DNA of 57,958 nucleotides from a virus (IMGVR_UViG_2778261152_000005:1-57958), one strand, 5' to 3'. Shown: positions 2 through 50,755, counted from the stretch's first letter. The notes: generated by a model from the letters alone, not told the origin. Numbers and translations are program-made.

Positions 2-1366
2 ACCACGCACCGCCCCGCCACCCTTCAGCACCTGCGTATCGGTGCCGACCAGAGCGGGAAAATCACAGCTATCTCACATGAAAGCTGGTCCGGAAACCTG
101 CCCGGCGGCACGCCGGAAACGGCGGTACAGCAAAGCGAATTACTCTACGCCGGGGCAAACCGTCATACCGGCCTGCGGCTCGCCACGCTTGATTTGCCGG
201 AAGGGAACGCCATGCGTGCGCCCGGCGAAGCCCCCGGTCTGATGGCGCTCGAAATCGCGATCGACGAACTGGCGGAAAAAGCGGGCATCGATCCCGTCGA
301 GTTTCGCATCCTGAATGACACTCAGGTTGACCCCGCCGACCCGACGCGCTGCTTCTCTCGCCGTCAGCTTATCGAGTGCTTGCGCACCGGAGCGGATAAA
401 TTTGGCTGGAAGCAGCGCAACGCCACACCCGGACAGGTGCGCGACGGGGAGTGGCTAGTCGGCCACGGTGTTGCGGCGGGCTTTCGCAATAATCTGCTGG
501 AAAAATCGGGTGCTCGGGTTCACCTCGAACAAAACGGCACCGTTACCGTAGAAACGGACATGACCGACATTGGCACCGGCAGCTACACCATTCTGGCCCA
601 GACGGCAGCGGAAATGCTTGGCGTACCGCTGGAGCAGGTTGCGGTTCACCTCGGCGATTCCAGTTTCCCGGTTTCTGCGGGTTCTGGTGGACAATGGGGC
701 GCGAATACCTCCACCTCCGGCGTTTACGCCGCCTGTATGAAGCTTCGCGAAATGATTGCCTCGGCAGTCGGGTTTGATCCTGAGCAGTCGCAGTTTGCCG
801 ACGGCAAGATTACCAACGGTACCCGAAGCGCCACGCTACATGAAGCCACCGCAGGCGGCAGACTGACAGCGGAAGAGAGCATTGAATTCGGAACACTGAG
901 CAAAGAGTACCAGCAGTCGACCTTTGCCGGGCATTTTGTGGAGGTCGGCGTGCATAGCGCGACGGGAGAAGTTCGGGTCCGGCGTATGCTCGCTGTGTGT
1001 GCTGCAGGACGCATCCTGAATCCGAAAACTGCGCGCAGCCAGGTCATTGGCGCAATGACTATGGGCATGGGCGCGGCACTGATGGAGGAGCTGGCGGTGG
1101 ATGACCGTTTGGGCTACTTCGTTAATCACGATATGGCGGGGTATGAGGTGCCGGTTCATGCGGATATCCCAAAACAGGAGGTGATTTTCCTGGATGATAC
1201 CGACCCCATATCCTCCCCGATGAAGGCCAAAGGTGTCGGTGAGCTGGGCCTGTGCGGCGTGAGCGCGGCTATCGCCAACGCGGTGTATAACGCCACCGGT
1301 ATTCGGGTACGGGATTATCCCATCACTCTGGATAAGCTGCTCGATAAGCTGCCGGATGTGGTTTAA
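2..1366 (+). CDS. paoC: Aldehyde oxidoreductase molybdenum-binding subunit (xanthine dehydrogenase family), 5' end outside window
   Basis: Frame is open from the window edge; C-terminal ...GVGELGLCGVSAAIANAVYNATGIRVRDYPITLDKLL is typical of Mo-binding subunits of this family; gene order paoC-paoD-yagP matches E. coli as recalled from memory. Confidence 0.8.
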   Translation, partial: TTHRPATLQHLRIGADQSGKITAISHESWSGNLPGGTPETAVQQSELLYAGANRHTGLRLATLDLPEGNAMRAPGEAPGLMALEIAIDELAEKAGIDPVEFRILNDTQVDPADPTRCFSRRQLIECLRTGADKFGWKQRNATPGQVRDGEWLVGHGVAAGFRNNLLEKSGARVHLEQNGTVTVETDMTDIGTGSYTILAQTAAEMLGVPLEQVAVHLGDSSFPVSAGSGGQWGANTSTSGVYAACMKLREMIASAVGFDPEQSQFADGKITNGTRSATLHEATAGGRLTAEESIEFGTLSKEYQQSTFAGHFVEVGVHSATGEVRVRRMLAVCAAGRILNPKTARSQVIGAMTMGMGAALMEELAVDDRLGYFVNHDMAGYEVPVHADIPKQEVIFLDDTDPISSPMKAKGVGELGLCGVSAAIANAVYNATGIRVRDYPITLDKLLDKLPDVV

Positions 1367-1375
1367 GGAGGAACA

Positions 1376-2332
1376 ATGTCATACCCGCTTTTTGACAAAG
1401 ACGAACACTGGCATAAGCCAGAGCAGGCGTTTCTCACCGATGACCACCGGACCATTCTGCGCTTCGCCGTAGAGGCGCTAATGTCCGGTAAAGGAGCGGT
1501 GCTGGTGACGCTGGTGGAGATACGCGGCGGCGCGGCGCGCCCGCTCGGGGCGCAGATGGTGGTGCGCGAAGATGGTCGTTACTGCGGTTTTGTCTCTGGC
1601 GGCTGCGTGGAGGCCGCTGCCGCTTTTGAAGCGCTGGAGATGATGGGCTCAGGCCGCGATCGCGAAATTCGCTATGGCGAAGGTTCGCCGTGGTTTGACA
1701 TCGTTCTGCCCTGCGGCGGTGGGATCACGCTGACGCTCCATAAACTACGCTCGGCACAGCCTCTGCTCGCCGTGCTGAACCGCCTGGAACAGAGAAAACC
1801 GGTGGGGCTGCGCTACGATCCGCAAGCACAATCGCTGGTGTGCCTGCCCACGCAAACCCGGACGGGCTGGAATCTCAATGGCTTTGAGGTGGGGTTCAGG
1901 CCATGCGTCAGGCTGATGATTTACGGACGTTCTCTTGAGGCGCAGGCAACCGCGAGTCTTGCAGCAGCCACAGGCTATGACAGCCATATCTTCGATCTTT
2001 TTCCGGCCTCAGCCAGCGCTCAGATCGATACCGATACGGCGGTCATTTTGCTGTGCCATGATCTCAACCGGGAGCTGCCAGTGTTGCAGGCCGCGCGAGA
2101 AGCAAAACCCTTTTATCTCGGCGCATTGGGCAGCTATCGAACCCACACGTTACGTCTGCAAAAGCTCCACGAGCTGGGATGGTCCAGGGAGGAAACAACG
2201 CAAATCCGGGCACCCGTCGGGATATTCCCCAAAGCCCGGGATGCGCATACTCTGGCACTCTCCGTGCTGGCAGAAGTCGCCTCTGTACGTCTCCATCAGG
2301 AGGAGGATTCATGCCTGCCCCCGTCGTCCTGA
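1376..2332 (+). CDS. paoD: XdhC/CoxI-family molybdenum cofactor insertion chaperone
   Basis: 318-aa ORF starting 10 bp after paoC stop; XdhC-like sequence (…VTLVEIRGGAARPLGAQMVV…). Confidence 0.8.
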   Translation: MSYPLFDKDEHWHKPEQAFLTDDHRTILRFAVEALMSGKGAVLVTLVEIRGGAARPLGAQMVVREDGRYCGFVSGGCVEAAAAFEALEMMGSGRDREIRYGEGSPWFDIVLPCGGGITLTLHKLRSAQPLLAVLNRLEQRKPVGLRYDPQAQSLVCLPTQTRTGWNLNGFEVGFRPCVRLMIYGRSLEAQATASLAAATGYDSHIFDLFPASASAQIDTDTAVILLCHDLNRELPVLQAAREAKPFYLGALGSYRTHTLRLQKLHELGWSREETTQIRAPVGIFPKARDAHTLALSVLAEVASVRLHQEEDSCLPPSS

Positions 2333-2721
2333 TCCTTGCGGCCGGGCGTGGAGAGCGCTTTCTCGCCTCCGGGGGAAATACCCATAAGTGTATCGGCTGG
2401 CGTCAGTCCCCGGAGGTTGCGCCTTATCGCTGGCCATTTGAAGAAAACGGGAGAACTTTCGACCTTGCGATTGAACCGCAGATTACGACTAATGATCTGC
2501 GTCTGATGTTGAGGCTGGCTCTTGCCGGCGGAGGAATAACAATTGCCACTCAGGAAACTTTCAGGCCATATATTGAAAGCGGTAAGCTTGTATCGCTGCT
2601 TGATGACTTTCTTCCACAATTTCCGGGCTTCTATCTGTATTTCCCACAGCGTCGCAATATTGCACCAAAGCTCCGCGCCCTGATTGACTACGTCAAAGAA
2701 TGGCGGCAGCAATTGGCTTAA
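2311..2721 (+). pseudogene. yagP: LysR-family regulator fragment (C-terminal effector domain only, no HTH)
   Basis: ATG at 2311 preceded by AGGAGGAGG; 136-aa product is only the C-terminal part of a LysR-type protein (…LRLMLRLALAGGGITIATQETFRPYIESGKLVSLLDDF…); overlaps paoD stop; same size and position as K-12 yagP from memory. Confidence 0.55.
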
Positions 2722-2837
2722 ATGTCTGCACCTGCACTGCCTGATGTCAGAACAGTATTTTGATGAATTGCCAAGGTTACAATGGCACAAATACGGCACA
2801 GGAGGAAACGTGGTGTATTTAAATATGGGGTAACTCT

Positions 2838-2872
2838 TTGATTTTAATGGTGCCGATAATAGGAGTAAAACA
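2838..2872. repeat. Attachment-site direct repeat, copy 1, containing the last 19 nt of tRNA-Thr (ptwF-like)
   Basis: TGGTGCCGATAATAGGAGT at 2848-2866 is the reverse complement of the tRNA-Thr(CGU) 3' end; with flanks it repeats at 15535-15563. Confidence 0.7.
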
Positions 2873-2921
2873 CTCGATTAATCTCGTGTTAATGCCATCA
2901 CCTACGACCATTACTAATTGA

Positions 2922-4286
2922 TTGAATCTTATAGAAAAATCATCATTTTCTATGCGTCACAATCAATTTTCACATTACAAACGCTCCGACACTTTAGCCG
3001 GAGATTTTATGAGATACAAGCCTAACCAATACTTAATCTGTGATTCTTACGGTAACTACTATTTAAGGATAACGCTGCCTGTGTATATGCAGCCCTTTTT
3101 TGAAGGAAAAAGGACGTTTGTCAGAAGTCTACACACAAGTAATCTTCGTGTTGCACGTAGAAAGCGTGATCAGATTGCAGATGAATACCATTGCTTACGG
3201 GAGAGTGTCGCCCCTGTAAACAGCACAATAGAAAACACGCTGGAACTGTTACGCAGTAAGGCTAAATACGCCAAAACAGCTACCAGAATGCAAGATACAG
3301 CGTCTTCGTGTCCGTCATTGCTTAAAATTCTTGAAATCTACCTGACAATTAACAGCACGAAGAAGAAGCCAGCCACTTTAGCTAAGGCAAGAAAAGCGGT
3401 AGAGATGTTTCTCTCCTACCGTAAAAAGCCTGATATTGCATTGCAAGATGTAAGCCGCACCACTGTTACAGGCTGGATTGAACACATGCAAAAAACCCTT
3501 TCACAACAATCAATTGCAAATTATATCAGCCCAATGGCCCAGCTATGGGAATTAGCTTCATCACGTTACCACGATGCGCCAGAAAGGGCGCTCTCCCCCT
3601 GGCGAGGGCATAGGCTTGATGTGGCACAAAGTAGAGAGAGCTACGAGGCATTTTCTAACAAAGAGCTATTGCAGGTGTTGCAAGTATTTTCCGGTGATTC
3701 AGCAGAAAACAAAGAAATGATGGCTTTGTGTCTTATCGGTGCCTATACAGGTATGCGGATCAATGAGATAGCAAGTCTCACAATAGACGATGTGAAAGAG
3801 ATCGAAGGTGTGCTGTGTTTTGAAATCACACAGGGAAAGACGAAAGCAGCGGCACGTGTTGTGCCTGTACATAGCCTTATCACTCCGTTGGTGTTGTCGC
3901 TGCGTGAAAAGCCTCACAATGGCTTTTTGTTCTATCACGCCAGCATTACAGAGCGTGCTGATGGTAAACGTTCCACGTGGCATACGCAGAGATTTACAAG
4001 AGCTAAACGAAAGGCTTTAGGGGAAAAGGGAACAGAAAGGAAAGTGTTTCATTCTCTGAGACACGGAGTAGCACAGCTTCTTGATCGAAATCAAATTCCA
4101 GAAGACAGGATCGCCCTTCTCCTGGGCCATACACGCGGCAATACAGAAACATTCCGCACATATAGCAAGAATGCAGCTTCTCCAGTAGAGCTTAAAAAAT
4201 ATATTGAGCTTTTACGCTACCCTGAAATAGAGAAAGGCTTATCAATCAATAAAAAATCAAATTTAAGGCGTAAAACAACACTGTAG
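2922..4286 (+). CDS. Tyrosine-type phage integrase
   Basis: ORF begins 55 bp after the att repeat; catalytic-region motifs …HSLRHGVAQLL… and …LLGHTRGNTETFRTYSK…; listed start is TTG at 2922, alternative ATGs at 2952 and 3009 (the latter with a GGAGA Shine-Dalgarno). Confidence 0.85.
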   Translation: MNLIEKSSFSMRHNQFSHYKRSDTLAGDFMRYKPNQYLICDSYGNYYLRITLPVYMQPFFEGKRTFVRSLHTSNLRVARRKRDQIADEYHCLRESVAPVNSTIENTLELLRSKAKYAKTATRMQDTASSCPSLLKILEIYLTINSTKKKPATLAKARKAVEMFLSYRKKPDIALQDVSRTTVTGWIEHMQKTLSQQSIANYISPMAQLWELASSRYHDAPERALSPWRGHRLDVAQSRESYEAFSNKELLQVLQVFSGDSAENKEMMALCLIGAYTGMRINEIASLTIDDVKEIEGVLCFEITQGKTKAAARVVPVHSLITPLVLSLREKPHNGFLFYHASITERADGKRSTWHTQRFTRAKRKALGEKGTERKVFHSLRHGVAQLLDRNQIPEDRIALLLGHTRGNTETFRTYSKNAASPVELKKYIELLRYPEIEKGLSINKKSNLRRKTTL

Positions 4287-4293
4287 ACGTAAT

Positions 4294-4330
4294 AAAGAGG
4301 CTTCAATATAGACTGATGCCTCTTTTATGA
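4294..4330. terminator. Hairpin terminator between convergent genes
   Basis: AAAGAGGC-(16 nt)-GCCTCTTT stem followed by TTTATGA, placed between int (+) and the 225-aa gene (-). Confidence 0.4.
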
Positions 4331-4366
4331 TTATCTCGTTACAGAGCGTTTCATAGGCGTTTAAGG

Positions 4367-5044
4367 CTATTGTTTAAATACTGGCGTTACAACGTCTTGC
4401 CCTGGGCTTTTTTGATTTTTCTGTTCTGTTGTATTTACCTGCATTTTAACCTGTCCCCCTACAGATTTATTTGGTGCTGTTTTTACCGCAATTGCGCTTG
4501 TAGTTGCTTTAGAGACAAGACGGATTTGCTCAAAATCAAGAGTAAACAATAGGCTTTCGCTTGCTTCTTCTGCGTAAGACATGCCAACTAACACAACGTT
4601 GTCATAATTTTTTAACTCAGTGACAAGTAGGAAAGGTTGGCGACTGTCCATCAACTGATTTAGGTATTCAAGCATAAGCATACGTCGATTGCCGTTAATT
4701 CCCGCATTCTTAATCATATCGGGATTGAGCTTCAATACGGTTTCAGAGATACGCCCTTGTAATGTGAACTTGTTATTCCGTATTTGAACATGATCACTAA
4801 CTTCTGATCCTGATTCGACGGCATAGCTTGTAACGTCTGCATTTCGGCTAACTTTCGTCGATTCCACGCTATCAAATGATAATGCCTGGTAGTCATTGTA
4901 AGCAGCATTTGCACCACTGCCGAGGTTAGAGGTAATGATCGCAAAGCCGTTACCCCCTTTAGTTGTTCTACCGTTGCTATCGTTGCTTGTGCTGTTGATT
5001 TTCGCCTCAGTCGGGCGACCAATGGTTAACGGACCCATTGCCAT
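4367..5044 (-). CDS. Hypothetical protein (225 aa)
   Basis: ORF in a co-directional block with 5092-6933; no recognisable motif. Confidence 0.45.
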   Translation of the reverse strand: MAMGPLTIGRPTEAKINSTSNDSNGRTTKGGNGFAIITSNLGSGANAAYNDYQALSFDSVESTKVSRNADVTSYAVESGSEVSDHVQIRNNKFTLQGRISETVLKLNPDMIKNAGINGNRRMLMLEYLNQLMDSRQPFLLVTELKNYDNVVLVGMSYAEEASESLLFTLDFEQIRLVSKATTSAIAVKTAPNKSVGGQVKMQVNTTEQKNQKSPGQDVVTPVFKQ

Positions 5045-5091
5045 AATTTGTAATCCTTATTTAAGGGGGCTAAACCGCCCCACAGTGATGA

Positions 5092-6933
5092 TTAATAGGT
5101 TGACCCGCCTGACATAACACCCAGCGTTAATAGCTTGCTAAACTCAGCGGAAGATGCCTTTGATTTGAAGTCGATAAATTCGCTCAATCGTCCGGTGTCT
5201 GATTCGATAGTTAGCGGCACTTCTGCATTTACTTGTAATTCTGGATTGAAGTTAATAACAGGTGCAAAGGTGTGGGAAGGAGTCTTGATAGCTTGTTGTG
5301 CTGCACTCTGTTTCAGATTTGCAATGTTTTGTCCTTCGAGAGTGTATTGATTTACAGCCTGCGCCCCGCCTACCGTCTCTTCTGGCGTAAACCAGCCTTT
5401 AATAGTGTTAACCAGGGAATTGCTGTTATCTGGCTTAGTTGTTCCGGTGCCAGCGCCTTTATATTGGTTAGGAGTGAGATTAGAAAGATTCTGCTTCATT
5501 CCTTCGTTAGACAGTGGCGGTGCATCACCTAAATTCTTTTGAATAGCAGCCGTCTTCTCGTCGTTTTTCATCAGCCAGTTGATTGCTTTCATTACAGCGT
5601 TAACCAATCCGCCGATAGCCTCGCCTAATTTGGTAAACATTGGCAGCATTGCAACCATGCTCTTTTTAAACTCTTCAATCACTTTCGGATCAAGAGATTT
5701 CATAAAGCCATCAACAAAGGCGATCCCTTGTGAGTCAGAAAGCCCACTAAGTGCATTATTCAGTTCACGGAATTTAATAACGCTTTCCTGTTGTGCCTGC
5801 GTTACCCAGCGCCCTGATTCTCGTTGTTCTCGTGCTGATTGTTCCACTTCTTTAGCGGAGCGTGTCCAGTATTTAGAGGTGAGCATCAAATCATCAGCCA
5901 GATCTTCCAGACGACTACCGATTTGTGCATCTGAATAGCCTTTAGCTACCATTCCCTGAACTGCTTTACTAACCAGACCAGCCGGATTATCAGCAAAGTC
6001 TTTTAGATCCTTTTTAGTTAGGAATCCTTCATTCATTAAAGTATTGATGCCGCTATCGCCGCCCTTCCATTCTCCTTTACCAGTTTTCTTATCAACTACA
6101 TATTCAGCCTCATCATAAGATTTAGTAGCCTTCTCCCGTACATCTTTCATCTGATCGAGATACTTACGTTTACCTTGTTCGCCCATCATTGAATCAACGC
6201 CGTTTTTATAAGCCCATTGTTCAATATTGTTCATCTGGTTAACGTCTACACCGCCCAGCTTCGCACGGCTATACAATTCACCCAGCGTTTCAGCATTCGC
6301 AAAGCTGTTAGTAACAAATTCAGAGGCTTTGCTCATAGCCATATACGTAGCGCCAGCGCCTAAGCCACCCAGCATAACAGCCGCAGCACCGCCGCCAATA
6401 CTCCCGCTACCCTTAACAGGTGCATAGGCTTTAGCGTGAGCGTTACGATTGCCATTAATCTTACGTTGTTGCTGTTGTAGGCGTTTCATTTGGCTATTCA
6501 TACGTGCCAGACTAATAGCTCCTCTTTCATATTGGAGGGCAATTTCTCTAGCCTGTGCAATAGCTTTATATTGTTCCGCTACAGAAAGACGGTGCATTGC
6601 ACTAATGCTTGATCCAACGTCTAAAAGCTTTAATTCTGCCTTCTCTTTGCGTGCTGCCAGGGCTTTTTGTTCTCTTGCAACTACACGTTGAGCGGCTAAT
6701 TGTGCTTTAGCATTAGCTTTATCAGCCTGTGCTTGCTTTTTAGCAATATCGTCTACGTCTTTTTTTGCTTTAGCGGTTGATTGTTTATGTGTCTTAACAC
6801 GCAATTCTATATCTTTCACCGCCGCCATTTGTTTACGAAGTTTTTCTACTTCTGCTTTTGCTTTCTCTAATGATGGTCGGTTAACTTCGAAGGTGACAAC
6901 GTTCGAGAGGCGTGCCACGTTTAGCTCTAACAT
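5092..6933 (-). CDS. Coiled-coil protein with central Gly/Ala-rich hydrophobic segment, tape-measure-like (613 aa)
   Basis: N-terminal Lys/Ala/Gln-rich coiled-coil region, then …GSGSIGGGAAAVMLGGLGAGATYMAM…; function not established. Confidence 0.5.
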   Translation of the reverse strand: MLELNVARLSNVVTFEVNRPSLEKAKAEVEKLRKQMAAVKDIELRVKTHKQSTAKAKKDVDDIAKKQAQADKANAKAQLAAQRVVAREQKALAARKEKAELKLLDVGSSISAMHRLSVAEQYKAIAQAREIALQYERGAISLARMNSQMKRLQQQQRKINGNRNAHAKAYAPVKGSGSIGGGAAAVMLGGLGAGATYMAMSKASEFVTNSFANAETLGELYSRAKLGGVDVNQMNNIEQWAYKNGVDSMMGEQGKRKYLDQMKDVREKATKSYDEAEYVVDKKTGKGEWKGGDSGINTLMNEGFLTKKDLKDFADNPAGLVSKAVQGMVAKGYSDAQIGSRLEDLADDLMLTSKYWTRSAKEVEQSAREQRESGRWVTQAQQESVIKFRELNNALSGLSDSQGIAFVDGFMKSLDPKVIEEFKKSMVAMLPMFTKLGEAIGGLVNAVMKAINWLMKNDEKTAAIQKNLGDAPPLSNEGMKQNLSNLTPNQYKGAGTGTTKPDNSNSLVNTIKGWFTPEETVGGAQAVNQYTLEGQNIANLKQSAAQQAIKTPSHTFAPVINFNPELQVNAEVPLTIESDTGRLSEFIDFKSKASSAEFSKLLTLGVMSGGSTY

Positions 6934-6967
6934 GCTAATTGTTTCCCTGTATTATGATTGTTGTTTG

Positions 6968-7165
6968 TTATTGTTTTTTAGAGCAATAATATTGGATTGC
7001 TTCGAAAGTGCTACATCCAGTCTGAAAGACACGCTGACGCACATTATTTGCATCAATTGAAAGCATTCTGCATAAGGCACTGACATTGATTATTGAGTCA
7101 TCGCTAATAGCTGCCAGTTCTTTTACAGATTTAAGAATTAATGCCTGTGAATTTTCTGTATTCAT
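6968..7165 (-). CDS. Hypothetical small protein (65 aa)
   Basis: ORF between two larger co-directional genes. Confidence 0.3.
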   Translation of the reverse strand: MNTENSQALILKSVKELAAISDDSIINVSALCRMLSIDANNVRQRVFQTGCSTFEAIQYYCSKKQ

Positions 7166-7318
7166 TGGTTTTCTCTCACATATATATTTTTATTTGGGTT
7201 TGTAGACAGTAGAAAAACAAAAAGGGCAAAGAGATTCGTTACTGTATTTGCGCCTACAGGTTAGTTAATCCCTTTACCATTATTTTCCAGACGATGGGAA
7301 TCGTCTATTAATGCTTTA

Positions 7319-8350
7319 TTACGCAGCAGATCCGAAGATGATAGCTTGCGGAATGTTGTTTACTGGCAGATAAGATGTCTCAGTAACCACAGATGGGAAT
7401 TGGAATTCATCCTTGATTAGATATTGGTGATGCAACACGGCATCTTGACCTAACTCAGCATGACGCACACCAACGCCGCTATGAAGCTGGTAACACTGTG
7501 CCGCTTTATCCATTACCGGGACAATTGCGAAACCGTTCTCTCCGATGTGAGCAACAATCTCAGGAAACATTGACACATCAATAACAGTGATCCCACCAAT
7601 CTGGAAAGAGTCATAGGCTGGGTTAGAATCAACCATACGGGTAAACAGGGCCGTAGCACTCGCATCGCCTGCATATTTCACCATGTCACTGATCAGCGGG
7701 TTAGATGACAAACCATCAGCAGCAGCGCCAGCAGCAAAGATAATTACACCAGTTCGCTTTGCAGCAAGACCAGACCCCAGCTTTTCACTCTGTAAGCGCA
7801 CCGCTTTACGAATAGCAAGGAACGGGTTAACAGTAGTCGATGCAAAGTCGATAGCGGGTACCGTGGTTTTAGCCTGACCGTCGAGGAAGTCGAGATCACC
7901 TTGTCCGGCATATTCAGATTCAACTTTCAGTCCCAGCAGCGCGGTAATCAGATCCACTTCAACACGGTTTGCGTGTGAACGGTAATGAGCCTCAGAGAAA
8001 TCATTAACCGCTACCAGCATAGCATCAGAACGGTTTGGATATTGGCGGCTGTATTGTTCCAGGTCACGAGAAGTAACAGCGTTAATACTGCCGACGTGTT
8101 TCATCTGGAAAAGTTTGTTTGACCATTCCTGACGTTTAGAAGCGTTCCAGTTGCTTTGAGTGTAAGGCGAGGTTTCCCCGGCTACCTGCACAAACTGCTC
8201 AATCAGGTCGGTAAGAAGAATGCTGTTTTCTGTATGATATTGCACATCGAACAGATCGAGATTAGTAATCAGGGTATTAAGTGCATTCTCATAAGCAAAT
8301 GGAGTTACTACCGCAGTATTAACGCCAAAATATGTTGATAAATCATTCAT
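7319..8350 (-). CDS. Hypothetical protein (343 aa), possibly structural
   Basis: Long ORF with no NTPase motif; co-oriented with 8365-8748; capsid-like role is a guess. Confidence 0.5.
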   Translation of the reverse strand: MNDLSTYFGVNTAVVTPFAYENALNTLITNLDLFDVQYHTENSILLTDLIEQFVQVAGETSPYTQSNWNASKRQEWSNKLFQMKHVGSINAVTSRDLEQYSRQYPNRSDAMLVAVNDFSEAHYRSHANRVEVDLITALLGLKVESEYAGQGDLDFLDGQAKTTVPAIDFASTTVNPFLAIRKAVRLQSEKLGSGLAAKRTGVIIFAAGAAADGLSSNPLISDMVKYAGDASATALFTRMVDSNPAYDSFQIGGITVIDVSMFPEIVAHIGENGFAIVPVMDKAAQCYQLHSGVGVRHAELGQDAVLHHQYLIKDEFQFPSVVTETSYLPVNNIPQAIIFGSAA

Positions 8351-8364
8351 TATTATTTTCCTTG

Positions 8365-8748
8365 TTAAGTCGTAGGGATCGCAAGTTCTTCATAACCAGC
8401 AATTACAAAGCCGAGAGATTGCAGTTTTGCAATAACACTTGCCTTTTCCATGCTGTTAAATTCAATCCCATCTTCAGCCAGAATAACGAAAGTAGGATGT
8501 GCAACCACTACGCTTTCCTGTCCTTCATAAGCCGGTTCAACTACTACGTGAGCAATATCAGAAGCGGTTGTTGCTTTGGTGCCATCGGCTTTCAGCAAAG
8601 CCCCGACAATAAGATCGTCAGTGAGAGGTGAAGCCAGTTTGACGAGGCGATCTTGCAGCACTGGATCAGCAGCGTAAGCTACTACCTTACAGCGTGAACG
8701 GGAGTTATCCGCATTCACTGCTTTTAATTTTCCATATGGGTTAGCCAT
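8365..8748 (-). CDS. Hypothetical protein (127 aa)
   Basis: ORF ending 15 bp before the 343-aa gene start, same strand; AT-rich probable promoter region upstream. Confidence 0.45.
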   Translation of the reverse strand: MANPYGKLKAVNADNSRSRCKVVAYAADPVLQDRLVKLASPLTDDLIVGALLKADGTKATTASDIAHVVVEPAYEGQESVVVAHPTFVILAEDGIEFNSMEKASVIAKLQSLGFVIAGYEELAIPTT

Positions 8749-9945
8749 AAGATTATTTTCCTTTCAGTTGTTTAATTTTAGATTTAAGGGCATCAGCAAG
8801 ACTAACCGCATCAGCCGATTTAAATAATTGAGCAGTGGTAGAACGAAGACTTTCGGGAGTAACTCACAACAGTGCGGCAACCTTAATGAGGTTTTCATCA
8901 CTAACAATCATCGTTTCCCCGTCTTTGCTGATAATCATTTCTTGTTTCATAAATAACGTTCCTGTTAGTGCCAGACAAATAAAAAGCCCCAATGCCGTAA
9001 GAGGTTAATTCTGACCAGCAAAGGGGCTTTAACGTGCGGGCAATTACATAATTGATAAGTTAAACTATAAGAGGATTAAACATATCAGCAAATACACTTT
9101 TTAAATATACTTGATGATATGCTTAAAGAGTGAATATCAGACCTTAGAAAGGAAGGCTCTTAGGAGTTTGCCACTGGAATCACTAAGATCTGATATTCTG
9201 GGTGCGGGGGGCTAACCGCTGCCTGTTTTTGCTGTGGATGCAACAAAGTAAGGCTGTAAGGAATCACTATTCCAATTCTCATCTACTCACAGATCAAATT
9301 TTAATAGGATTAACTACACCAACAGTAATCTACCGTTTCAGAAAATCGTTTTTACAACCAAAGCTTATAGATCCGCATTCTATAAAACCCGTTTTGCTAT
9401 CAATATTTCCAAAGGTTATTGCACAATTCTTAGCTAAACTCTCTCTGCTTGCGGCTAACGCTATGCAGATGATTGTTTTTGACAACAACTTAATAGATTA
9501 TTCTGTTACTAACTTCTGTCATTAAATAAGAGTTTAATGATGTTAGTAAATAGTTATAAAATATAACTATCAGTGTAAGGCTCTTTAATGTTTTCGGACA
9601 AAATAAGGAGCTTTAGGATAAGCATAGATGAAAAATAAGAGCGGGAAGGGCAAGGAGATAACACCTACCCACCTTTATCAAAATTAAGCACAATGCCTAA
9701 CAACATTCATCAACACAACGTAGAAACAATCAACAATCAAAGAGGGAGTTATGATTATTCTAAAACTTCTTGAGAGATGGAAGGTAATATTTGTTAGAGG
9801 TTAATGCCACTCAACCCTTGAGGCTATCACCTTCCATATGCAGGGATTTATGACAATAGAAGGATTAACGCCAACTAAAATCTTTTTATCTATCCCTAAA
9901 ATTATTATATAACAAAATCATTATAAATGCAAATGATTTTCATTA

Positions 9946-10257
9946 TCATTTAGAGAAAATAGCACTTTTTGCTAAATCATCTACTAATTGCTGAATCTCT
10001 TCACTTGTAGCCTTTAACGTGCGGGCGGTGTCTGTGATAGTTCGAGTGCACAGCTTGGCATCGTCCTCAGATAGCTGCTCTAAATCGCTCACCAGAGAGA
10101 TAAAATCGTCAAGGCTTACATTCACCTTCATTAAGCTAATTACGCATTGAGAGAGCGTGTAATCGCATAAATCTGAATAGGCTTGATTGATACGTGTCTG
10201 TAGGGTGATCATCCGATCCGAAAGAGTGTCCATAACTTCCAGAATGTTGTCTGTCAT
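9946..10257 (-). CDS. Hypothetical acidic protein (103 aa)
   Basis: Start overlaps the stop of the upstream ORF (10254-10257); AT-rich. Confidence 0.4.
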   Translation of the reverse strand: MTDNILEVMDTLSDRMITLQTRINQAYSDLCDYTLSQCVISLMKVNVSLDDFISLVSDLEQLSEDDAKLCTRTITDTARTLKATSEEIQQLVDDLAKSAIFSK

Positions 10258-10484
10258 TGTGCAATCTCTCCTTGATCTGCTGATTCCATCTCTTGCTGAA
10301 TCTGTTTATCCTTGTTTAGTGCAATCTGTAGTGGTATACGATAGGTTGCAATGTCATCCAGCACATCATCAAGCAAGGCAAAATCATTTTCTTCTTTTGC
10401 TCGTTCAGCCAGTGAAATAAACACTTCTGCAAGTTGTTTTGCTTCTTTAAAAAATGTTGTTTCTAATAGTTGATAGTTAATCAT
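10254..10484 (-). CDS. Hypothetical protein (76 aa)
   Basis: Overlaps the next gene in operon arrangement. Confidence 0.4.
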   Translation of the reverse strand: MINYQLLETTFFKEAKQLAEVFISLAERAKEENDFALLDDVLDDIATYRIPLQIALNKDKQIQQEMESADQGEIAQ

Positions 10485-10542
10485 TATTTTTCCTTTTTCG
10501 AATATTTTTCATTGGGCGCTTATACATACGCCCGTCATTTTA

Positions 10543-10926
10543 TTAGTTAGAACGTTTGTTAGAAGCTAATGTATCTTCTAAATGAGCCATCAGATCGACT
10601 TCCGAAACACCACCTACACAATTATTGAAAGCGTTAAATCCCAAAAAATGATGATAGGAGCTAAACCCTAAAAGCTGCCAACGTTTCAGAGTGCCATCAG
10701 AAATGATAGTTTGTTTTCTTGTTTTTGGGCGAAAGTAAACGCCTGGCATTGATTTGATTATTTCTTGTTCTTCATAGCTTAATTCAGGGGATTCTGTTTC
10801 AAGAATAAATATTATCTCTTCCCCTGGAATTTCGTTATTGGTGTGTGTCGGTGGACGTTGTCTTGTTGAATTGAAGTTACTGTTTTTTTCAATACGTTTT
10901 AAGTTGTTCTTTTTCTTTCTTCCCAT
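10543..10926 (-). CDS. Hypothetical protein with basic N-terminus (127 aa)
   Basis: ORF beginning MGRKKKNNLKRIEK…; no recognised domain. Confidence 0.4.
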   Translation of the reverse strand: MGRKKKNNLKRIEKNSNFNSTRQRPPTHTNNEIPGEEIIFILETESPELSYEEQEIIKSMPGVYFRPKTRKQTIISDGTLKRWQLLGFSSYHHFLGFNAFNNCVGGVSEVDLMAHLEDTLASNKRSN

Positions 10927-11061
10927 TTTCCCTCTTTTTATGTGGATTATAAAAACTTGATGCCATTGTTACAATGAATATCGCCATAAATGCATTTGCC
11001 ATATGTATTGCCCGATCTGTTGTTATTGATTGTTTGTGATGTTATAAATCATTTATTCTCC

Positions 11062-11655
11062 TTAGAATGGTATTGAATCGTATATTTCACTTTTTTCTCT
11101 TAGAGATATTATCAGATCGTGAAAAGCCTGTTTCTCAAGATAGATATTCTTTGAATCTAATGCTCGTTTTACAAAATCTTCTGTTTCTTCGTGCGGTGGT
11201 TTCTTCTTATCAAGGGAAAGAAGCCAAGTAAAAATTTCGGGCCGTTCAGGGAACTCAGGCTCTTGTGTTTCTTCTTCAACGATGATTTCGGAAACATTCA
11301 ATATTTCATTAGATTCGTCTTCTTTCTCAGAAGGATCAGGTAGTGATGATTCTCCTTTTGGAATATCAAGCACTCGATAAAGGTTAGAGCTTCCTGGTCG
11401 TGCATCTTTTATAATTAATCCCATTTCGAGCAATTTCTTAACCCTTTCTTCTGCTGCTCTTGGTGTTATGCCAAAAACATCGCCTATCTTAGCGTAAGAG
11501 GGAAATGCACGATCAAACCCTCTCAAATAGCAGTAAAGGTTTTTAGCACTATCTGTAAATTTATGCCCGTTTACTTGGCTTATTTTTAGAATCCACATAG
11601 GAACTTTTACAAATTGTTCTTCATTAATCATTAAAAATCTCCTTGATGTAATCAC
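11062..11655 (-). CDS. Winged-helix DNA-binding protein, replication-initiator/regulator-like (197 aa)
   Basis: N-terminal …FVKVPMWILK…AKNLYCYLRGF…FPSYAKIGDVFGITPRAAEERVKKLLEMGLI… HTH-like region and acidic C-terminus; lies about 1.3 kb from the iteron array. Confidence 0.5.
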   Translation of the reverse strand: MITSRRFLMINEEQFVKVPMWILKISQVNGHKFTDSAKNLYCYLRGFDRAFPSYAKIGDVFGITPRAAEERVKKLLEMGLIIKDARPGSSNLYRVLDIPKGESSLPDPSEKEDESNEILNVSEIIVEEETQEPEFPERPEIFTWLLSLDKKKPPHEETEDFVKRALDSKNIYLEKQAFHDLIISLREKSEIYDSIPF

Positions 11656-11684
11656 GCTCTACGGCGCTACTATGGTGATAAAAA

Positions 11685-11855
11685 TCACTTGCTTTTGTTT
11701 GAGAGTGTTTCAGCCTCTCTTTTCAACATATCAAGAATGTAATCTGTAACAGTGATACGTTTACTTCTGGCTTCTTTAAACAACACCTGAAATACTTCAT
11801 CAGGAATATGAAAGCAAGTGCGTGGTTGTCTTTTCTTTTCTGTAGTTTCGCTCAT
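11685..11855 (-). CDS. Small ribbon-helix-helix-like DNA-binding protein (56 aa, not in ORF track)
   Basis: ATG at 11855 with AGGAG 9 nt upstream; MSETTEKKRQPRTCFHIPDEVFQVLFKEARSKRITVTDYILDMLKR…. Confidence 0.4.
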   Translation of the reverse strand: MSETTEKKRQPRTCFHIPDEVFQVLFKEARSKRITVTDYILDMLKREAETLSNKSK

Positions 11856-11876
11856 AGTTTTCTCCTTCTCCTGTTA

Positions 11877-12053
11877 TTATTCTTTCTCTGCCTTACGCAG
11901 TTCATCAATAATTTTTAGTGCATCGTCAAAGCATTTTTCACGCTCTGGATAACCACAGCGTCGCGCTGTGTTCCTGTTCATCCTTACTTTAAAACGATTA
12001 ATCTCACCACGTTTCCAGGCTTCAACTACATCTTGAGAAGTGAAATACTTCAC
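11877..12053 (-). CDS. Small hypothetical protein (58 aa, GTG start, not in ORF track)
   Basis: GTG at 12053 with AGGAGG 7 nt upstream; …KYFTSQDVVEAWKRGEINRFKVRMNRNTARRCGYPEREKCFDDALKIIDELRKAEKE. Confidence 0.4.
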   Translation of the reverse strand: MKYFTSQDVVEAWKRGEINRFKVRMNRNTARRCGYPEREKCFDDALKIIDELRKAEKE

Positions 12054-12488
12054 TAATTAACCTCCTATTCTATTTGGTTAAAAGAAAAAACACCTTGCAA
12101 GCCTGACGGCTTCAAAGTGCATTGATTTTAATTATTTAGAGGATGGGAATGTTTTCCTGTCCTAATATTACTTTACCACGACTAAAGGCTTTTGTCAACC
12201 CGTAGTCGTAAAAATATTGATCTTTTTCAGTAAGTTATGATATTGCTTAACAATTCGTGCTCTTTTTCTTCCTTATTGTCTAAAACGCTCTAAAACGCCC
12301 TCTGACGAGGTTTTGATAAATACAATAATTCCCTTATGTAGAGGCTGTTTAGCTCGCCAGAGGCTTGATTTAAGCGGTAGAATCTCATCTACTACCTAAC
12401 ATCTTTAAACCATATTTTTCTTTTTTGTCTGTTTGATGGTTGATCTATAGTTATGCGTTAGCATCCCCAAAGGGGTAACGCTACTCTA

Positions 12489-12869
12489 ATTGCATTCGCC
12501 AGAACATTGCACAAGAAATTTATTTTAGATGATTGATGATCGTTAGATTGGCGTAAGCCTCATCAATGGAACTATTGAAGCGCACAGCGCATAGACACTA
12601 ACAACCATTCGCTTACGCTCAGGTTATTGCACAAGTAAATTTCAATCGTTAGATGGTAGTTAGTTAATTATCGTTCTGCGCACAGCGCAAGACTATTTAG
12701 CCTTACGCAAGCCGTAGGCTATTTGCACATAGTAGATTACATATTCGTTGTGAGCGGCATTAGCGAACATAGATCTACTAACTAACATCAACAAACAAAA
12801 ACTATGTGTTATGACAAGCAGTCTAACGACTAACACTCTAACTTGTGCAAGGTTCTGGCGAATGCCAAT
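12489..12869. repeat. Repeat-rich 381-bp segment bounded by 27-bp inverted repeats
   Basis: ATTGCATTCGCCAGAACATTGCACAAG at 12489-12515 and its near-perfect inverted copy at 12842-12869; interior has two roughly 110-bp tandem units with TCGTTAGAT, GCGCACAGCGCA and TTGCACA motifs. Confidence 0.5.
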
Positions 12870-12981
12870 AGATTAAGGGATAGTCAAGGACTCCCCTAAC
12901 GGGTATCCCTATAATTATTCTTTAAAGATAAAAGAATTTATAAAAGATAATTTAATTGTAGTTTTATAGTTGATCTAATAG

Positions 12982-13118
12982 GTAACAAAATTCTGTAGGG
13001 GTGGCTAACAGTTTTCTGTGGGGGTGTCTAACATAATTCTGTTAGGGTTGGGGTAACAGTTTTCTGTTAGGGTGCATATTTCTTTAAAAGTTAAGGATAA
13101 CAGAATTCTGTGGGGGTA
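12982..13118. promoter_or_regulatory. Iteron array (5 copies of AACAnnwTTCTGTnGGGGT), putative origin or Rep-binding region
   Basis: Four tandem copies at about 23-bp spacing plus one spaced copy, followed by AT-rich DNA. Confidence 0.55.
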
Positions 13119-13671
13119 GTTCACAGTGACCTACCGTTATTACCGATGTGTAATATCGTTACATCCATTTATCACATAACATCTGTGCAATGATCTTCTT
13201 ATAAGTTGTAAAAGTGTTTCTTGCTATCAAAAATTAAACATCTAAAACAGGCTTAAATTCAAGATTAATTGATGATTAATCCCTGTGTAATTCCATACTA
13301 AAAAATTTAATGAAAAGTAGCTTAAAAGAGCAATGTTAGCTTTCTTCACTTTTACATCACTTTCGCAAAGCCTTGTGTAATGCGGCTTACAGAGCACTAT
13401 CAGAAATTGTTGATTAAAAATCAATCTATTATCTGTCGAACAAGTTTTCTTTAATGCAACAAAAAATTAATTTTTTCAAAATAAACACGCTATTTAATAG
13501 CTTGCTAATTTTACCAAAACATAACTACACGATTCTCATGCAAGACGTGTAGTGATAAAGCAGGCTAAATCACCACACTAAAAACCTTCGAATTTCGTAG
13601 TGAAAAAAGTCCTTTACACACCTAATCAACACGATCAATAATCACTACACACAAATCAACACAGAAGGAAA

Positions 13672-14229
13672 ATGAAAATGGCTAATATTGGATACATTAG
13701 GGTATCGACTGTCCAACAAAACACAGACCGTCAATTAGCTGGAGTAACTCTTGATAAAGTCTTTGAAGATAAAGCGTCAGGCAAGAATACCCAGCGCCCA
13801 CAGTTTGAGGCAATGATGAACTATGTGCGTGAAGGTGATGTTTTGCATGTTCACAGCATTGATCGACTTTGCCGTAATACAGCCGACCTACTGGCAACGG
13901 TTGAGCAATTAACAGAGCGCGGCGTGTCTGTGCATTTCCATAAAGAAGACTTTAAGACAGGGAAGAACTCTCCCGCAGGGAATATGATGCTCACAGTGCT
14001 TGCAGCAGTGGCACAAATGGAACGTGAAATGATGCTTGAGCGGCAACGTGAAGGGATCGCCGCAGCTAAGGCCGCTGGACGTATAGCAAAACGTGGTAAT
14101 GGAAAAGCAATTGATCGAGCGGGAATTGTTGCCGCTCTCGCGAATGGTGGATCAATTCGGAGCGTAGCAAAAGATTTCAGTGTCAGCACACAGACGGTGC
14201 AACGTATCAAGAAAGAGCAGGAAGCGTAA
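13672..14229 (+). CDS. Serine recombinase (resolvase/invertase family)
   Basis: N-terminal …GYIRVSTVQQNTDRQ… catalytic-serine motif and C-terminal HTH (…SIRSVAKDFSVSTQTVQRIKK…). Confidence 0.85.
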   Translation: MKMANIGYIRVSTVQQNTDRQLAGVTLDKVFEDKASGKNTQRPQFEAMMNYVREGDVLHVHSIDRLCRNTADLLATVEQLTERGVSVHFHKEDFKTGKNSPAGNMMLTVLAAVAQMEREMMLERQREGIAAAKAAGRIAKRGNGKAIDRAGIVAALANGGSIRSVAKDFSVSTQTVQRIKKEQEA

Positions 14230-14554
14230 TGCCTCCTGATATTTGAGAATTGTCGCTGCGTGGACCTGACGCCGCTGATCTTCGCGTTAAACATTGATCA
14301 CGTCTGCGCCGATTTCAGATAAAAAGGTAGCTATTAAGCAATACGTAACTTTTACAATTAGTGAAATTATCTAAAACACAAGTTATATAGATGAGAAAAT
14401 GAAACATTATCTTGAACAAATCAAACAAAACAACACATCATCTTGTTGACACCATGCAAAGTGAATAGTAAACTATTATATGTGAAAATTTGCATGTTGC
14501 GTGCAATAAAAAATAAATGATACTTTGCTATTGTTAAATCAATAGGGGGTATCT

Positions 14555-14713
14555 ATGCGCTTTATCTCATCCATTTTAAAAACCTGCAGAACCACAATTA
14601 CTTTAGCTGTAATTGTTACCATCATATACCTCATCTATTTTACCCCTCGAGATAAAATCGATTCACTAGCGATCATCGTTCATGCAATGGCTACATTAAC
14701 TAAAAAACTTTAA
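14555..14713 (+). CDS. Small hydrophobic peptide (52 aa, not in ORF track)
   Basis: ATG at 14555 with GGGGG Shine-Dalgarno; MRFISSILKTCRTTITLAVIVTIIYLIYF… predicted single membrane helix. Confidence 0.25.
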   Translation: MRFISSILKTCRTTITLAVIVTIIYLIYFTPRDKIDSLAIIVHAMATLTKKL

Positions 14714-15523
14714 TAATTTCACTATCAGGCGCATAAACACATCTTTGATCGCTGGATGTGTTATGCGCCTACTGGTGATTCAATCCTTAAGCCATTTCAA
14801 CTCACTAAGGAGTTTTCTTTCTTCGTTCTCTCGCTGTTTACGCTCTAGCCAGGCTTTTCCCTCTGGAGTAGACAGGAACTTACGAGCGTGAATCTTGCGG
14901 TTATTACGTTTGATAGCTGCAATGTTTTTCATCGTGTTGCCTCTGTATTCATATGAAAATGAACAAGTTACATACTACACAGGGAGACTACGCATAAAAC
15001 ACAATACAAGTAAAGATACATTTTCAAGACAATAGGAGCCATAAAGCGCCTTTGATGGTTATACCAAAAAATAAGCGCCGTAGGCGTATCCACTAAAAGG
15101 GCTTTTTCACAAAAGCTATGAAGTCTTAGCAGTTCTTCTCTTATCAGGCACCCGTTGTACTCCGGTGGACGAAACCGTGCTAGAGCTTGATTCTTTCCCG
15201 ATCAAGTTAGGTTTTGAAGAGGTGGGCTTTAATCCACTATTGCACTTAAAACTCTTCCCATCATTTAGCCTGTTTATCCTCTGCAACGTCATCTCGACGT
15301 GTAGCATCATTGGACACCGCGCCAGGTGTGGAACATCTTGCTAAGAGTTTTGGTAGAAGGTTTAGAGACGGTGGCACGTCTTCCAGCTTCAAAGGAACTT
15401 GTTACGAGGTTGAGCCTGGGAACTACTCGCCCATACGTGTTACACTACCAAAGCCCATAACAACGTATAGGCGTTTGTAATTGATAACAGAAGATACAAT
15501 TTCTTAGAGAAGTTAAGCTAAGT

Positions 15524-15563
15524 TATTGATTTTCTTAATGGTGCCGATAATAGGAGTAAAACA
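15524..15563. repeat. Attachment-site direct repeat, copy 2 (boundary between elements A and B)
   Basis: TAATGGTGCCGATAATAGGAGTAAAACA shared with 2838-2872; 15539-15557 matches the tRNA-Thr 3' end. Confidence 0.7.
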
Positions 15564-50646: not shown

Positions 50647-50709
50647 AACGCCTAATATGGCGAATTTAAAGGAAAAATGGAGGACTAAGGATGTTAGCGG
50701 ATTAAAAAA

Positions 50710-50755
50710 TGGTGCCGATAATAGGAGTCGAACCTACGACCTTCGCATTACGAAT
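50710..50755 (-). other. tRNA-Thr(CGU) 3' fragment (46 nt, anticodon loop to CCA), attachment core, not an intact tRNA
   Basis: Reverse complement ATTCGTAATGCGAAGGTCGTAGGTTCGACTCCTATTATCGGCACCA matches the 3' part of thrW from memory; the expected 5' D-arm half is absent. Confidence 0.75.

Follow-up and report, generated by a model that had tools for sequence, protein, structure and literature searches.

What do three small genes without recognisable relatives contribute to the mobile element that carries them? This question is raised by positions 9946-10926 of IMGVR_UViG_2778261152_000005, a stretch of 57,958 nucleotides that we refer to throughout, at its full length, as the window. A first-pass annotation had placed there, inside an integrated island called element A, a translationally coupled operon of three unrecognised small proteins, and had proposed that they are cargo with anti-defence, toxin-antitoxin-like or regulatory functions. 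The three open reading frames (ORFs) were found exactly as described, on the minus strand and in the order A (10543-10926; 127 aa, isoelectric point [pI] 9.1), B (10254-10484; 76 aa, pI 4.2) and C (9946-10257; 103 aa, pI 4.2). They follow S, a candidate small membrane peptide, and the resulting S-A-B-C cassette is by far the fastest-diverging part of the element. The account of the cassette that we tentatively put forward, and to which we give somewhat less than an even chance, is that it is the helper-interaction and late-switch module of a phage satellite, in which B and C would form a partner-binding complex and A would be a nucleic acid-binding regulator.

Conserved order and fast divergence of the S-A-B-C cassette

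A, B and C are genuine genes. This conclusion is supported by a plausible Shine-Dalgarno sequence before each ORF (GAGGG, AAGGA and AGGAG, respectively), by ratios of nonsynonymous to synonymous substitution (dN/dS) below 1, and by the retention of their order in relatives whose proteins are only 20-55% identical. The median dN/dS values, taken over codon-aligned alleles with 6-17 distinct alleles compared, are 0.17 for A, 0.26 for B and 0.49 for C, which indicates purifying selection at the codon level and makes C the least constrained of the three genes; structural genes in the same element, likewise compared as codon-aligned alleles, give 0.09-0.17. Moreover, we estimate that stop codons occur at a frequency of ~0.07 per codon in DNA of 36-42% GC, so that the probability of at least 103 open codons is ~7e-4 and ORFs of the length of A, B and C are improbable by chance. 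Cassette DNA is present in 283 of 5,426 complete E. coli genomes.

The layout of the genes agrees in part with the earlier description. The stop codon of B and the start codon of C share the 4-nt sequence ATGA at 10254-10257, and this junction is ATGA or TAATG across all relatives. By contrast, A and B are separated by a spacer of 58 nt, and B has its own Shine-Dalgarno sequence; thus, translational coupling holds for B and C only, and not for A and B. A closed operon of three genes was not borne out, because S overlaps A, a further gene (D) follows C in relatives, and the string of genes upstream continues into the cassette. The block had also been called more AT-rich than its surroundings. 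With GC contents of 36% (A and B) and 42% (C), this is correct relative to the capsid/tail half of the element (42-46%), but not relative to the regulatory half at 9-14 kb (34-38%).

The order S-A-B-C, or S-A-B-C-D, is retained in the related loci L038, L042-L044, L045 and L046, and in the most distant ones, L047 and L048, a single gene encoding 114-129 aa follows A instead of B and C. The expectation that the genes would be conserved across related islands was therefore confirmed in diverged relatives. In searches of E. coli genomes, IMG/VR and representative proteins, the cassette was found solely in one family of elements, which are of the Escherichia type and share the same architecture. 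All of the contexts looked up for the A family (P0045, P0208, P0210, P0211, P0216 and P0218) belong to this element type, and A is the hallmark gene of the family. The position of the cassette is fixed as well, between the replication genes and the late promoter. Because S-A-B-C is family-specific, fixed in position and hypervariable, we do not regard it as exchangeable cargo, and that part of the earlier proposal is given up.

Comparison of the window with L042 shows how unevenly the element has diverged. The encoded proteins are 82% (major capsid protein), 84% (tape-measure-like), 76% (Dit-like) and 95% (p56) identical outside the cassette, versus 40% for A (55% in its core), 60% for B and 20% for C. 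At the DNA level, similarity is gone from A to the leader that follows the cassette, and the flanks are ~80% identical. B of the window is 55-60% identical to its homologues in L038 and L042, and the C homologues of these two loci, at 20% identity, were matched by hhalign with a probability of 95.7% (E = 9e-9). Within the main E. coli clade, variation is limited to S-A, B, the first of the C helices, an 89-aa gene and the N-terminal domain of the replication initiator-like protein (Rep), and conservation of the leader and late genes is 96-100%. Linkage is perfect between the B allele and the allele of the N-terminal helix of C (31 + 5 of 36 loci), and free assortment within E. coli was seen for the A allele, the type of Rep N-terminal domain and the 89-aa gene. 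C is present in all 36 loci examined, and A and S are absent from several copies. One locus of E. coli GW-AmxH19 (L010 6556-7116) contains a natural fusion, in which the Rep-like protein is joined in frame to the C-terminal half of the 67-aa B allele at a microhomology encoding ETED; S and A are lost in this copy, and C is intact and still overlaps its upstream gene.

The description of the proteins as unrecognised, and as possibly regulatory, stands. Scans against Pfam, PHROGs, NCBIfam and PADLOC gave no significant match for A, B or C, nor for S or D; sequence and profile searches of the PDB with A, B and C likewise returned no significant match, and tblastn of A, B and C against 50,697 phage genomes (E <= 10) gave no real match. 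A has a conserved basic N-terminal arm (MGRKKKNNLKRIEK in the window), with the consensus MGRK(K/E)(K/R)N.L.RIE among relatives, and its core retains the motifs PGE..ILE, SPxL[ST]xEExxII, GVYFKPRxRK and WQxLGFxxYxxYxGW. An exhaustive hidden Markov model search of 1.84 billion representative proteins delimited an A family of ~25 true clusters of 95-135 aa, none of which has a Pfam or PDB relative. The AlphaFold2 model of A was too poor to be included in the fold search (predicted local distance difference test [pLDDT] score of 54).

B, which occurs in E. coli as alleles of two lengths (76 and 67 aa), appears helical as judged by eye from its sequence, and C was modelled by AlphaFold2 as a three-helix bundle (pLDDT 77, predicted template modelling score 0.62). 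Acidic residues make up 21% of B and 17% of C. Fold searches with the C model returned generic or designed helical bundles only, so that the remote-homology and structure searches suggested for these proteins yielded nothing informative. Many NCBI records name C a transporter. We rejected this assignment, since the model is that of a soluble three-helix bundle and the protein has no hydrophobic segment; the name appears to be a propagated mis-annotation.

Element A as a putative satellite of Phapecoctavirus

Element A is a 12.7-kb island at thrW (2847-15557) that is bounded by 20-nt att-like direct repeats of the thrW 3' end (2847-2866 and 15538-15557). Its anatomy looks like that of a phage satellite: it encodes an intF-like integrase (2922-4286, plus strand) and a Rep-like protein, has iterons, and includes only a small number of genes for capsid and tail. 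Besides the integrase and att repeats, it has a predicted replication module, and its set of virion genes is too incomplete to make a particle alone; 2847-15557 was found to have no genes for a terminase, portal, protease, sheath or tube, and none for lysis.

Several parts of the island resemble Phapecoctavirus sequences. The genes of the tape-measure-like protein (613 aa; 5092-6933, minus strand) and the Dit-like protein (225 aa; 4367-5044, minus strand) form a segment (4367-6933) that is homologous and syntenic with the tape-measure protein gene of the Phapecoctavirus ESCO5 and the Dit-like gene next to it (gp244 and gp243; L041 4838-7654), with protein identities of 30% and 53%, respectively. 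Literature searches found no satellite with its own tape-measure and Dit pair, and, to our knowledge, none has been described. A non-coding segment of 83 nt (14233-14315), just after the resolvase gene (13672-14229, plus strand), is ~81% identical to intergenic sequence in more than 60 Phapecoctaviruses. In several phage records this match lies within a few hundred bases of a record end, and the segment may be a site, common to island and helper, for packaging or regulation.

A further link involves the replication module. Positions 11318-11672 of the window, comprising the Rep N-terminal domain and 40 nt upstream of it, match the 5' part of a gene of the virulent Phapecoctavirus Mt1B1_P17 at 99% DNA identity. 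The protein encoded by this gene (QNJ49226.1; L011 2328-3314) is 328 aa long, shares its first winged-helix domain with the island Rep, and contains in addition a second HTH_36 domain and an endonuclease domain of the GIY-YIG superfamily (phrog_681, E = 2e-18; Pfam MUG113, E = 4e-4). Its predicted design matches that of Odn, the origin-directed nuclease that phage ICP1 uses against the PLE of Vibrio cholerae, an element like the phage-inducible chromosomal islands, and the same logic of initiator, origin and nuclease has been reported for RepA of PLE, the PLE origin and Odn of ICP1 (Barth et al., 2021; PMC8263062). At the level of sequence, element A is tied to virulent Phapecoctavirus myophages, and it looks like a PLE-type satellite of virulent E. 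coli phages that has apparently not been described before, in a setting that shows signs of an arms race still in progress. Literature searches by thrW satellite, by Phapecoctavirus or Stephanstirmvirinae satellite and by accession found no description of the element.

The Rep-like protein (11062-11655, minus strand), which has PHROG replication-initiator matches and a match to Pfam HTH_36, has at its N-terminus a variable winged-helix domain, followed by an acidic linker and a C-terminal domain that is conserved. Four types of N-terminal domain occur in the main E. coli copies, and more types are present in distant relatives. The candidate origin of the window consists of five iteron-like repeats of 23 nt (GGnTAACAGnnTTCTGTnGGGGTG; 12980-13118). 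Iteron arrays are wholly different between copies and co-vary with the Rep N-terminal type, with four Rep-domain/iteron pairs among the fetched loci (arrays compared at L001 15172-15310, L003 12731-12840, L006 6081-6182 and L042 7405-7444). This pattern indicates that the replicon is modular, as in PLE.

The likeness to PLE extends to other features. Both are integrated islands of ~12-18 kb; PLE parasitises the large virulent myophage ICP1, and element A would likewise parasitise a large virulent myophage. Each has a replication initiator of its own (predicted in element A), whose N-terminal DNA-binding domain can be exchanged and is matched to the element's iterons. For each, a helper-type phage has a nuclease built on the satellite's origin-binding domain (PMC8263062), and small orphan genes lie between replication and morphogenesis functions. 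However, there is no sequence homology between island and PLE genes, and the island, unlike PLE, encodes lambda E-like capsid, gpD-position, tape-measure-like and Dit-like proteins.

Other satellites offer partial parallels. The Staphylococcus aureus pathogenicity islands (SaPIs), with PtiA/PtiM and CpmA/CpmB, and P4, with sid-delta-psu, encode small element-specific proteins, often helical and co-expressed, that act by binding proteins of the helper phage, for instance its late activator, capsid protein or scaffold. No homology of these proteins to A, B or C was detected, however, and the island differs further in that its cassette is located in the early arm, upstream of the late promoter, and in that its putative helper is virulent rather than temperate. 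Capsid-forming phage-inducible chromosomal islands resemble element A in having their own HK97-fold capsid protein, but they contain a complete module for head formation and packaging (small terminase, portal, protease, capsid protein and connectors), whereas the island has only the capsid gene, the gene in the gpD position and genes for tail-internal proteins, and portal, protease and terminase were not detected.

Late-gene control and the possible roles of the cassette

Directly after the stop codon of C lies a near-consensus sigma-70-type promoter, P_gap (TTTGCA-18-TATAAT; 9904-9933, minus strand), which reads into an ORF-poor, untranslated leader of ~0.93 kb (8975-9903, minus strand). A promoter is found at the same position in L042 and L038 (TTGACT-17-TATAAT), L046 (TTGACA-17-TAAGAT), L047 (TTGACA-17-TAAAAT) and L048 (TTGCAA-17-TATACT). 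It is conserved in five lineages even though its flanks cannot be aligned, and palindromes are present in or next to it. The leader varies from 0.5 to 0.95 kb across lineages, is 96-99.8% identical among E. coli copies, and ends in the window in an intrinsic-terminator-like hairpin followed by a U-run (8975-9030; -31 kcal/mol, z = -3.1), ~25 nt before the first late gene. L042 has at the same place a hairpin that is unrelated but likewise followed by a U-run, and a comparable terminator-like hairpin was read by eye from the sequence of L048, giving three lineages with such hairpins right before the late genes. Since ~25 nt between terminator and late genes leave no room for another promoter in the window, late expression must be by read-through. 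No conserved ORF was found in the leader, and a search of the whole element against Rfam (E <= 1) found nothing; the leader may be a regulatory RNA.

Two candidate signals in this region were rejected. We do not claim a promoter for A itself, because the promoter scan found fewer sites than expected from shuffles (11 versus 18) and the candidate (TTGTAA-17-TATAAT) lies within ORF S, where it encodes F-Y-N. A boxA-like motif (CGCTCTTA) occurs in the leader of the window lineage only, is absent from L042, L046, L047 and L048, and arises by chance in 11% of shuffles. Nor was a lambda N-type nut site, consisting of boxA and a boxB hairpin, found in the leaders examined. The succession of gene or genes, strong constitutive-looking promoter, leader, terminator and late genes is like that of lambdoid late control (Q, P_R', 6S leader and tR'), and the basic N-terminal arm of A may resemble the arginine-rich RNA-binding arms of the lambda N type. 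The differences from the lambdoid arrangement are that A, B and C have no homology to Q or N, that boxA and boxB are not conserved in the island leaders, that these leaders are longer than the lambdoid one of ~0.2 kb, and that A is dispensable in some island copies.

In the helper-interaction and late-switch account, B and C, made together by means of their start/stop overlap, would associate into a complex, acidic and helical, with a phage or host protein as its binding partner, and this complex would be the specificity part caught in an arms race. A would act as a nucleic acid-binding regulator that helps transcription from the promoter after C to pass the terminator and reach the late genes, and S would be a small membrane peptide. 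On a wider scale, the cassette could be the arms-race core of an undescribed E. coli satellite family that lives on virulent Phapecoctavirus, an Escherichia counterpart of PLE and ICP1; this, too, we hold as a leading possibility rather than a probable one. In that case the capsid, tape-measure and Dit-like proteins would come from the satellite itself, S-A-B-C would encode novel effectors or switches aimed at the phage, and some phages would counter with an Odn-like chimeric nuclease at the satellite origin.

Several points weigh against this account. S and A are lost together in L005 and L009, and the capsid/tail genes of these copies are otherwise intact (in L009, over the length of the fetched stretch); an essential late switch is not expected to be lost. 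Two A alleles that are only 67% identical occur alongside a 99%-conserved leader, and hence there is no sign that A and the leader co-evolve. The linkage between B and C alleles could result from their physical overlap alone, and fast divergence of simple helical bundles can reflect weak constraint, as the dN/dS of 0.49 for C may indicate. The functions proposed for the proteins are drawn only from position, charge and evolutionary pattern, and the helper is identified through sequence links.

Some of the same observations bear on a purely internal late-gene switch, in which one or more of A, B and C would serve as an antiterminator, an anti-repressor or an RNA polymerase-binding factor solely at the promoter, leader and terminator of the element itself, without any phage target. 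Such a switch would resemble lambda Q and N or Mu C in position, and it accords with a cassette that always ends right at the conserved late promoter, with late genes that lie behind a terminator, with the conserved basic arm of A and with the palindromes at the promoter. We nevertheless consider it unlikely, because A is missing from some otherwise intact copies, no DNA-binding fold was recognised, and the only boxA-like motif is the lineage-restricted one, which is compatible with chance. Moreover, C is 20% identical between lineages in which the candidate repressor p56 is 95% identical, which argues against a conserved internal partner for C. Comparison with the structural genes is also informative about B and C as capsid-assembly helpers, that is, scaffold-like or size-determining proteins for the lambda E-like capsid in the manner of SaPI CpmA/CpmB or P4 Sid. 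Both are small, acidic, co-expressed and encoded upstream of the head genes, C is all-helical in its model and B looks helical by eye. However, a promoter, a 0.9-kb leader and a terminator separate them from the head genes, implying an earlier transcription unit, and they diverge faster than the capsid protein that they would have to fit (20-60% versus 82% identity), so that we think this role very unlikely.

The proposals of the first-pass annotation that point away from the late genes fare no better. If B, C or both served in anti-defence, mimicking DNA or binding a host immune protein and thereby protecting the element or its helper on entry, their small size, fast evolution and allelic mosaics would fit, and a pI of 4.2 with 17-21% acidic residues would be compatible, although not specific. 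The chance of this is small in our judgement, given that no Pfam or PHROG anti-restriction family, such as those of the DNA mimics Ocr and ArdA, was matched, that the genes never occur in other mobile elements or phages, as typical anti-defence genes do, and that their fixed position deep in the element is not that of an entry-proximal accessory locus. A toxin-antitoxin or addiction system, formed by the B-C pair or with S as a small membrane toxin, is highly improbable. B and C do overlap like many type II pairs, C is kept in every copy, degraded ones included, and S is similar in general form to small hydrophobic toxic peptides. Against this, no toxin-antitoxin family was matched in Pfam, NCBIfam or PADLOC (an AbiEi hit with E = 0.008 and 13.8 bits is not significant), both proteins are acidic and show no DNA-binding antitoxin fold, the pair never occurs outside the element family as an independently mobile unit, and S is deleted along with A in natural variants with no obvious compensating change. 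The pair thus lacks two of the three testable defining features of such systems, and the toxin-antitoxin-like label is not supported.

The outcome matters beyond this locus. Phapecoctaviruses belong to the E. coli phages that are isolated, and considered for therapy, most frequently, and the island is present in ~5% of complete E. coli genomes, including O104:H4, enterotoxigenic and avian pathogenic strains. Should the island be a satellite of these phages, phage host range would have a hidden determinant in it, a second, genetically tractable case of a satellite of a virulent phage would be at hand, and S-A-B-C would be the place to seek new proteins for taking over or blocking such a phage. 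If the cassette is only an internal late switch, it would still represent a new family of small regulators, with A accounting for ~25 clusters without a known relative.

Neighbouring genes and other features of the island

S is a candidate small membrane peptide of 37 aa (MANAFMAIFIVTMASSFYNPHKKRE...; 10889-11002, minus strand) with a hydrophobic helix and a basic tail. Its ORF overlaps the start of A by 38 nt, had been overlooked in the first-pass annotation and is absent from that of RefSeq. ORFs of the same hydrophobic-helix and basic-tail form, differing in sequence, occupy the same place in the window and L042, L038, L046 and L048; that of L046 was called by the gene caller, and that of L045 was read by eye only. 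At the S position of L047 there is only an unconvincing ORF of 15 codons. The in-frame ratio of nonsynonymous to synonymous polymorphism (pN/pS) of S is 0.33, a value that discriminates weakly. D, the fifth coupled gene (73-77 aa), follows C in L038 and L042-L044 and is not present in the window.

The cassette continues an upstream string of genes that encode p58, p56 and the Rep-like protein. Two small basic proteins head this string, p58 (11877-12053, minus strand) and the p56 protein, which resembles Arc and ribbon-helix-helix proteins (11685-11855, minus strand), and a promoter-like site lies upstream at 12198-12170. The 89-aa gene is located between Rep and S. It is intact in other copies and is reduced in the window, by an internal deletion, to a remnant of 9 codons (MIYNITNNQ*; 11023-11052, minus strand).

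The late-gene block (4367-8950, minus strand) lies downstream of the leader. It begins with a 65-aa gene (8753-8950, minus strand), which has a premature stop in the window at codon 29 (8864-8866) and is intact in strain 95-3322; the window copy of the element may be partly defective. The block continues with a 127-aa gene in the lambda gpD position (8365-8748, minus strand), the gene for the lambda gpE-like major capsid protein of 343 aa (7319-8350, minus strand), whose relatives match Pfam Phage_cap_E, and a second 65-aa gene on the minus strand between the capsid and tape-measure-like genes.

Members of the element family vary in integrity and location. Besides thrW, a tRNA-Gly site between actS/xdhA and the E. 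coli type III secretion system 2 (ETT2) region is occupied in L003 and L042-L044, and in L003 (E. coli O139:H1 W13-16) an IS3 element stands in place of the capsid/tail half. CP4-6 of E. coli K-12 was considered as a relative, having intF at the same site as element A, and was rejected because the neighbouring yagN, ykgV and yagM are unrelated to A, B and C. The divergent L038 is a 13.7-kb contig (Logan SRR28159019) without integrase or resolvase, on which a 489-aa P-loop protein (phrog_2467) occupies the place of the Rep-like protein and a superinfection-immunity-like membrane protein is encoded; the order of its genes would fit a circularly permuted form that is possibly episomal.

Outside element A, the window contains the E. 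coli genes paoC and paoD (194-2332), which mark it as E. coli DNA. The thrW 3' end occurs three times, at 2847-2866, 15538-15557 and 50709-50755, and a second prophage of ~35 kb (15557-50709), with a lysis cassette, a T7-like tail fibre and a terminase, lies in tandem with element A at thrW.

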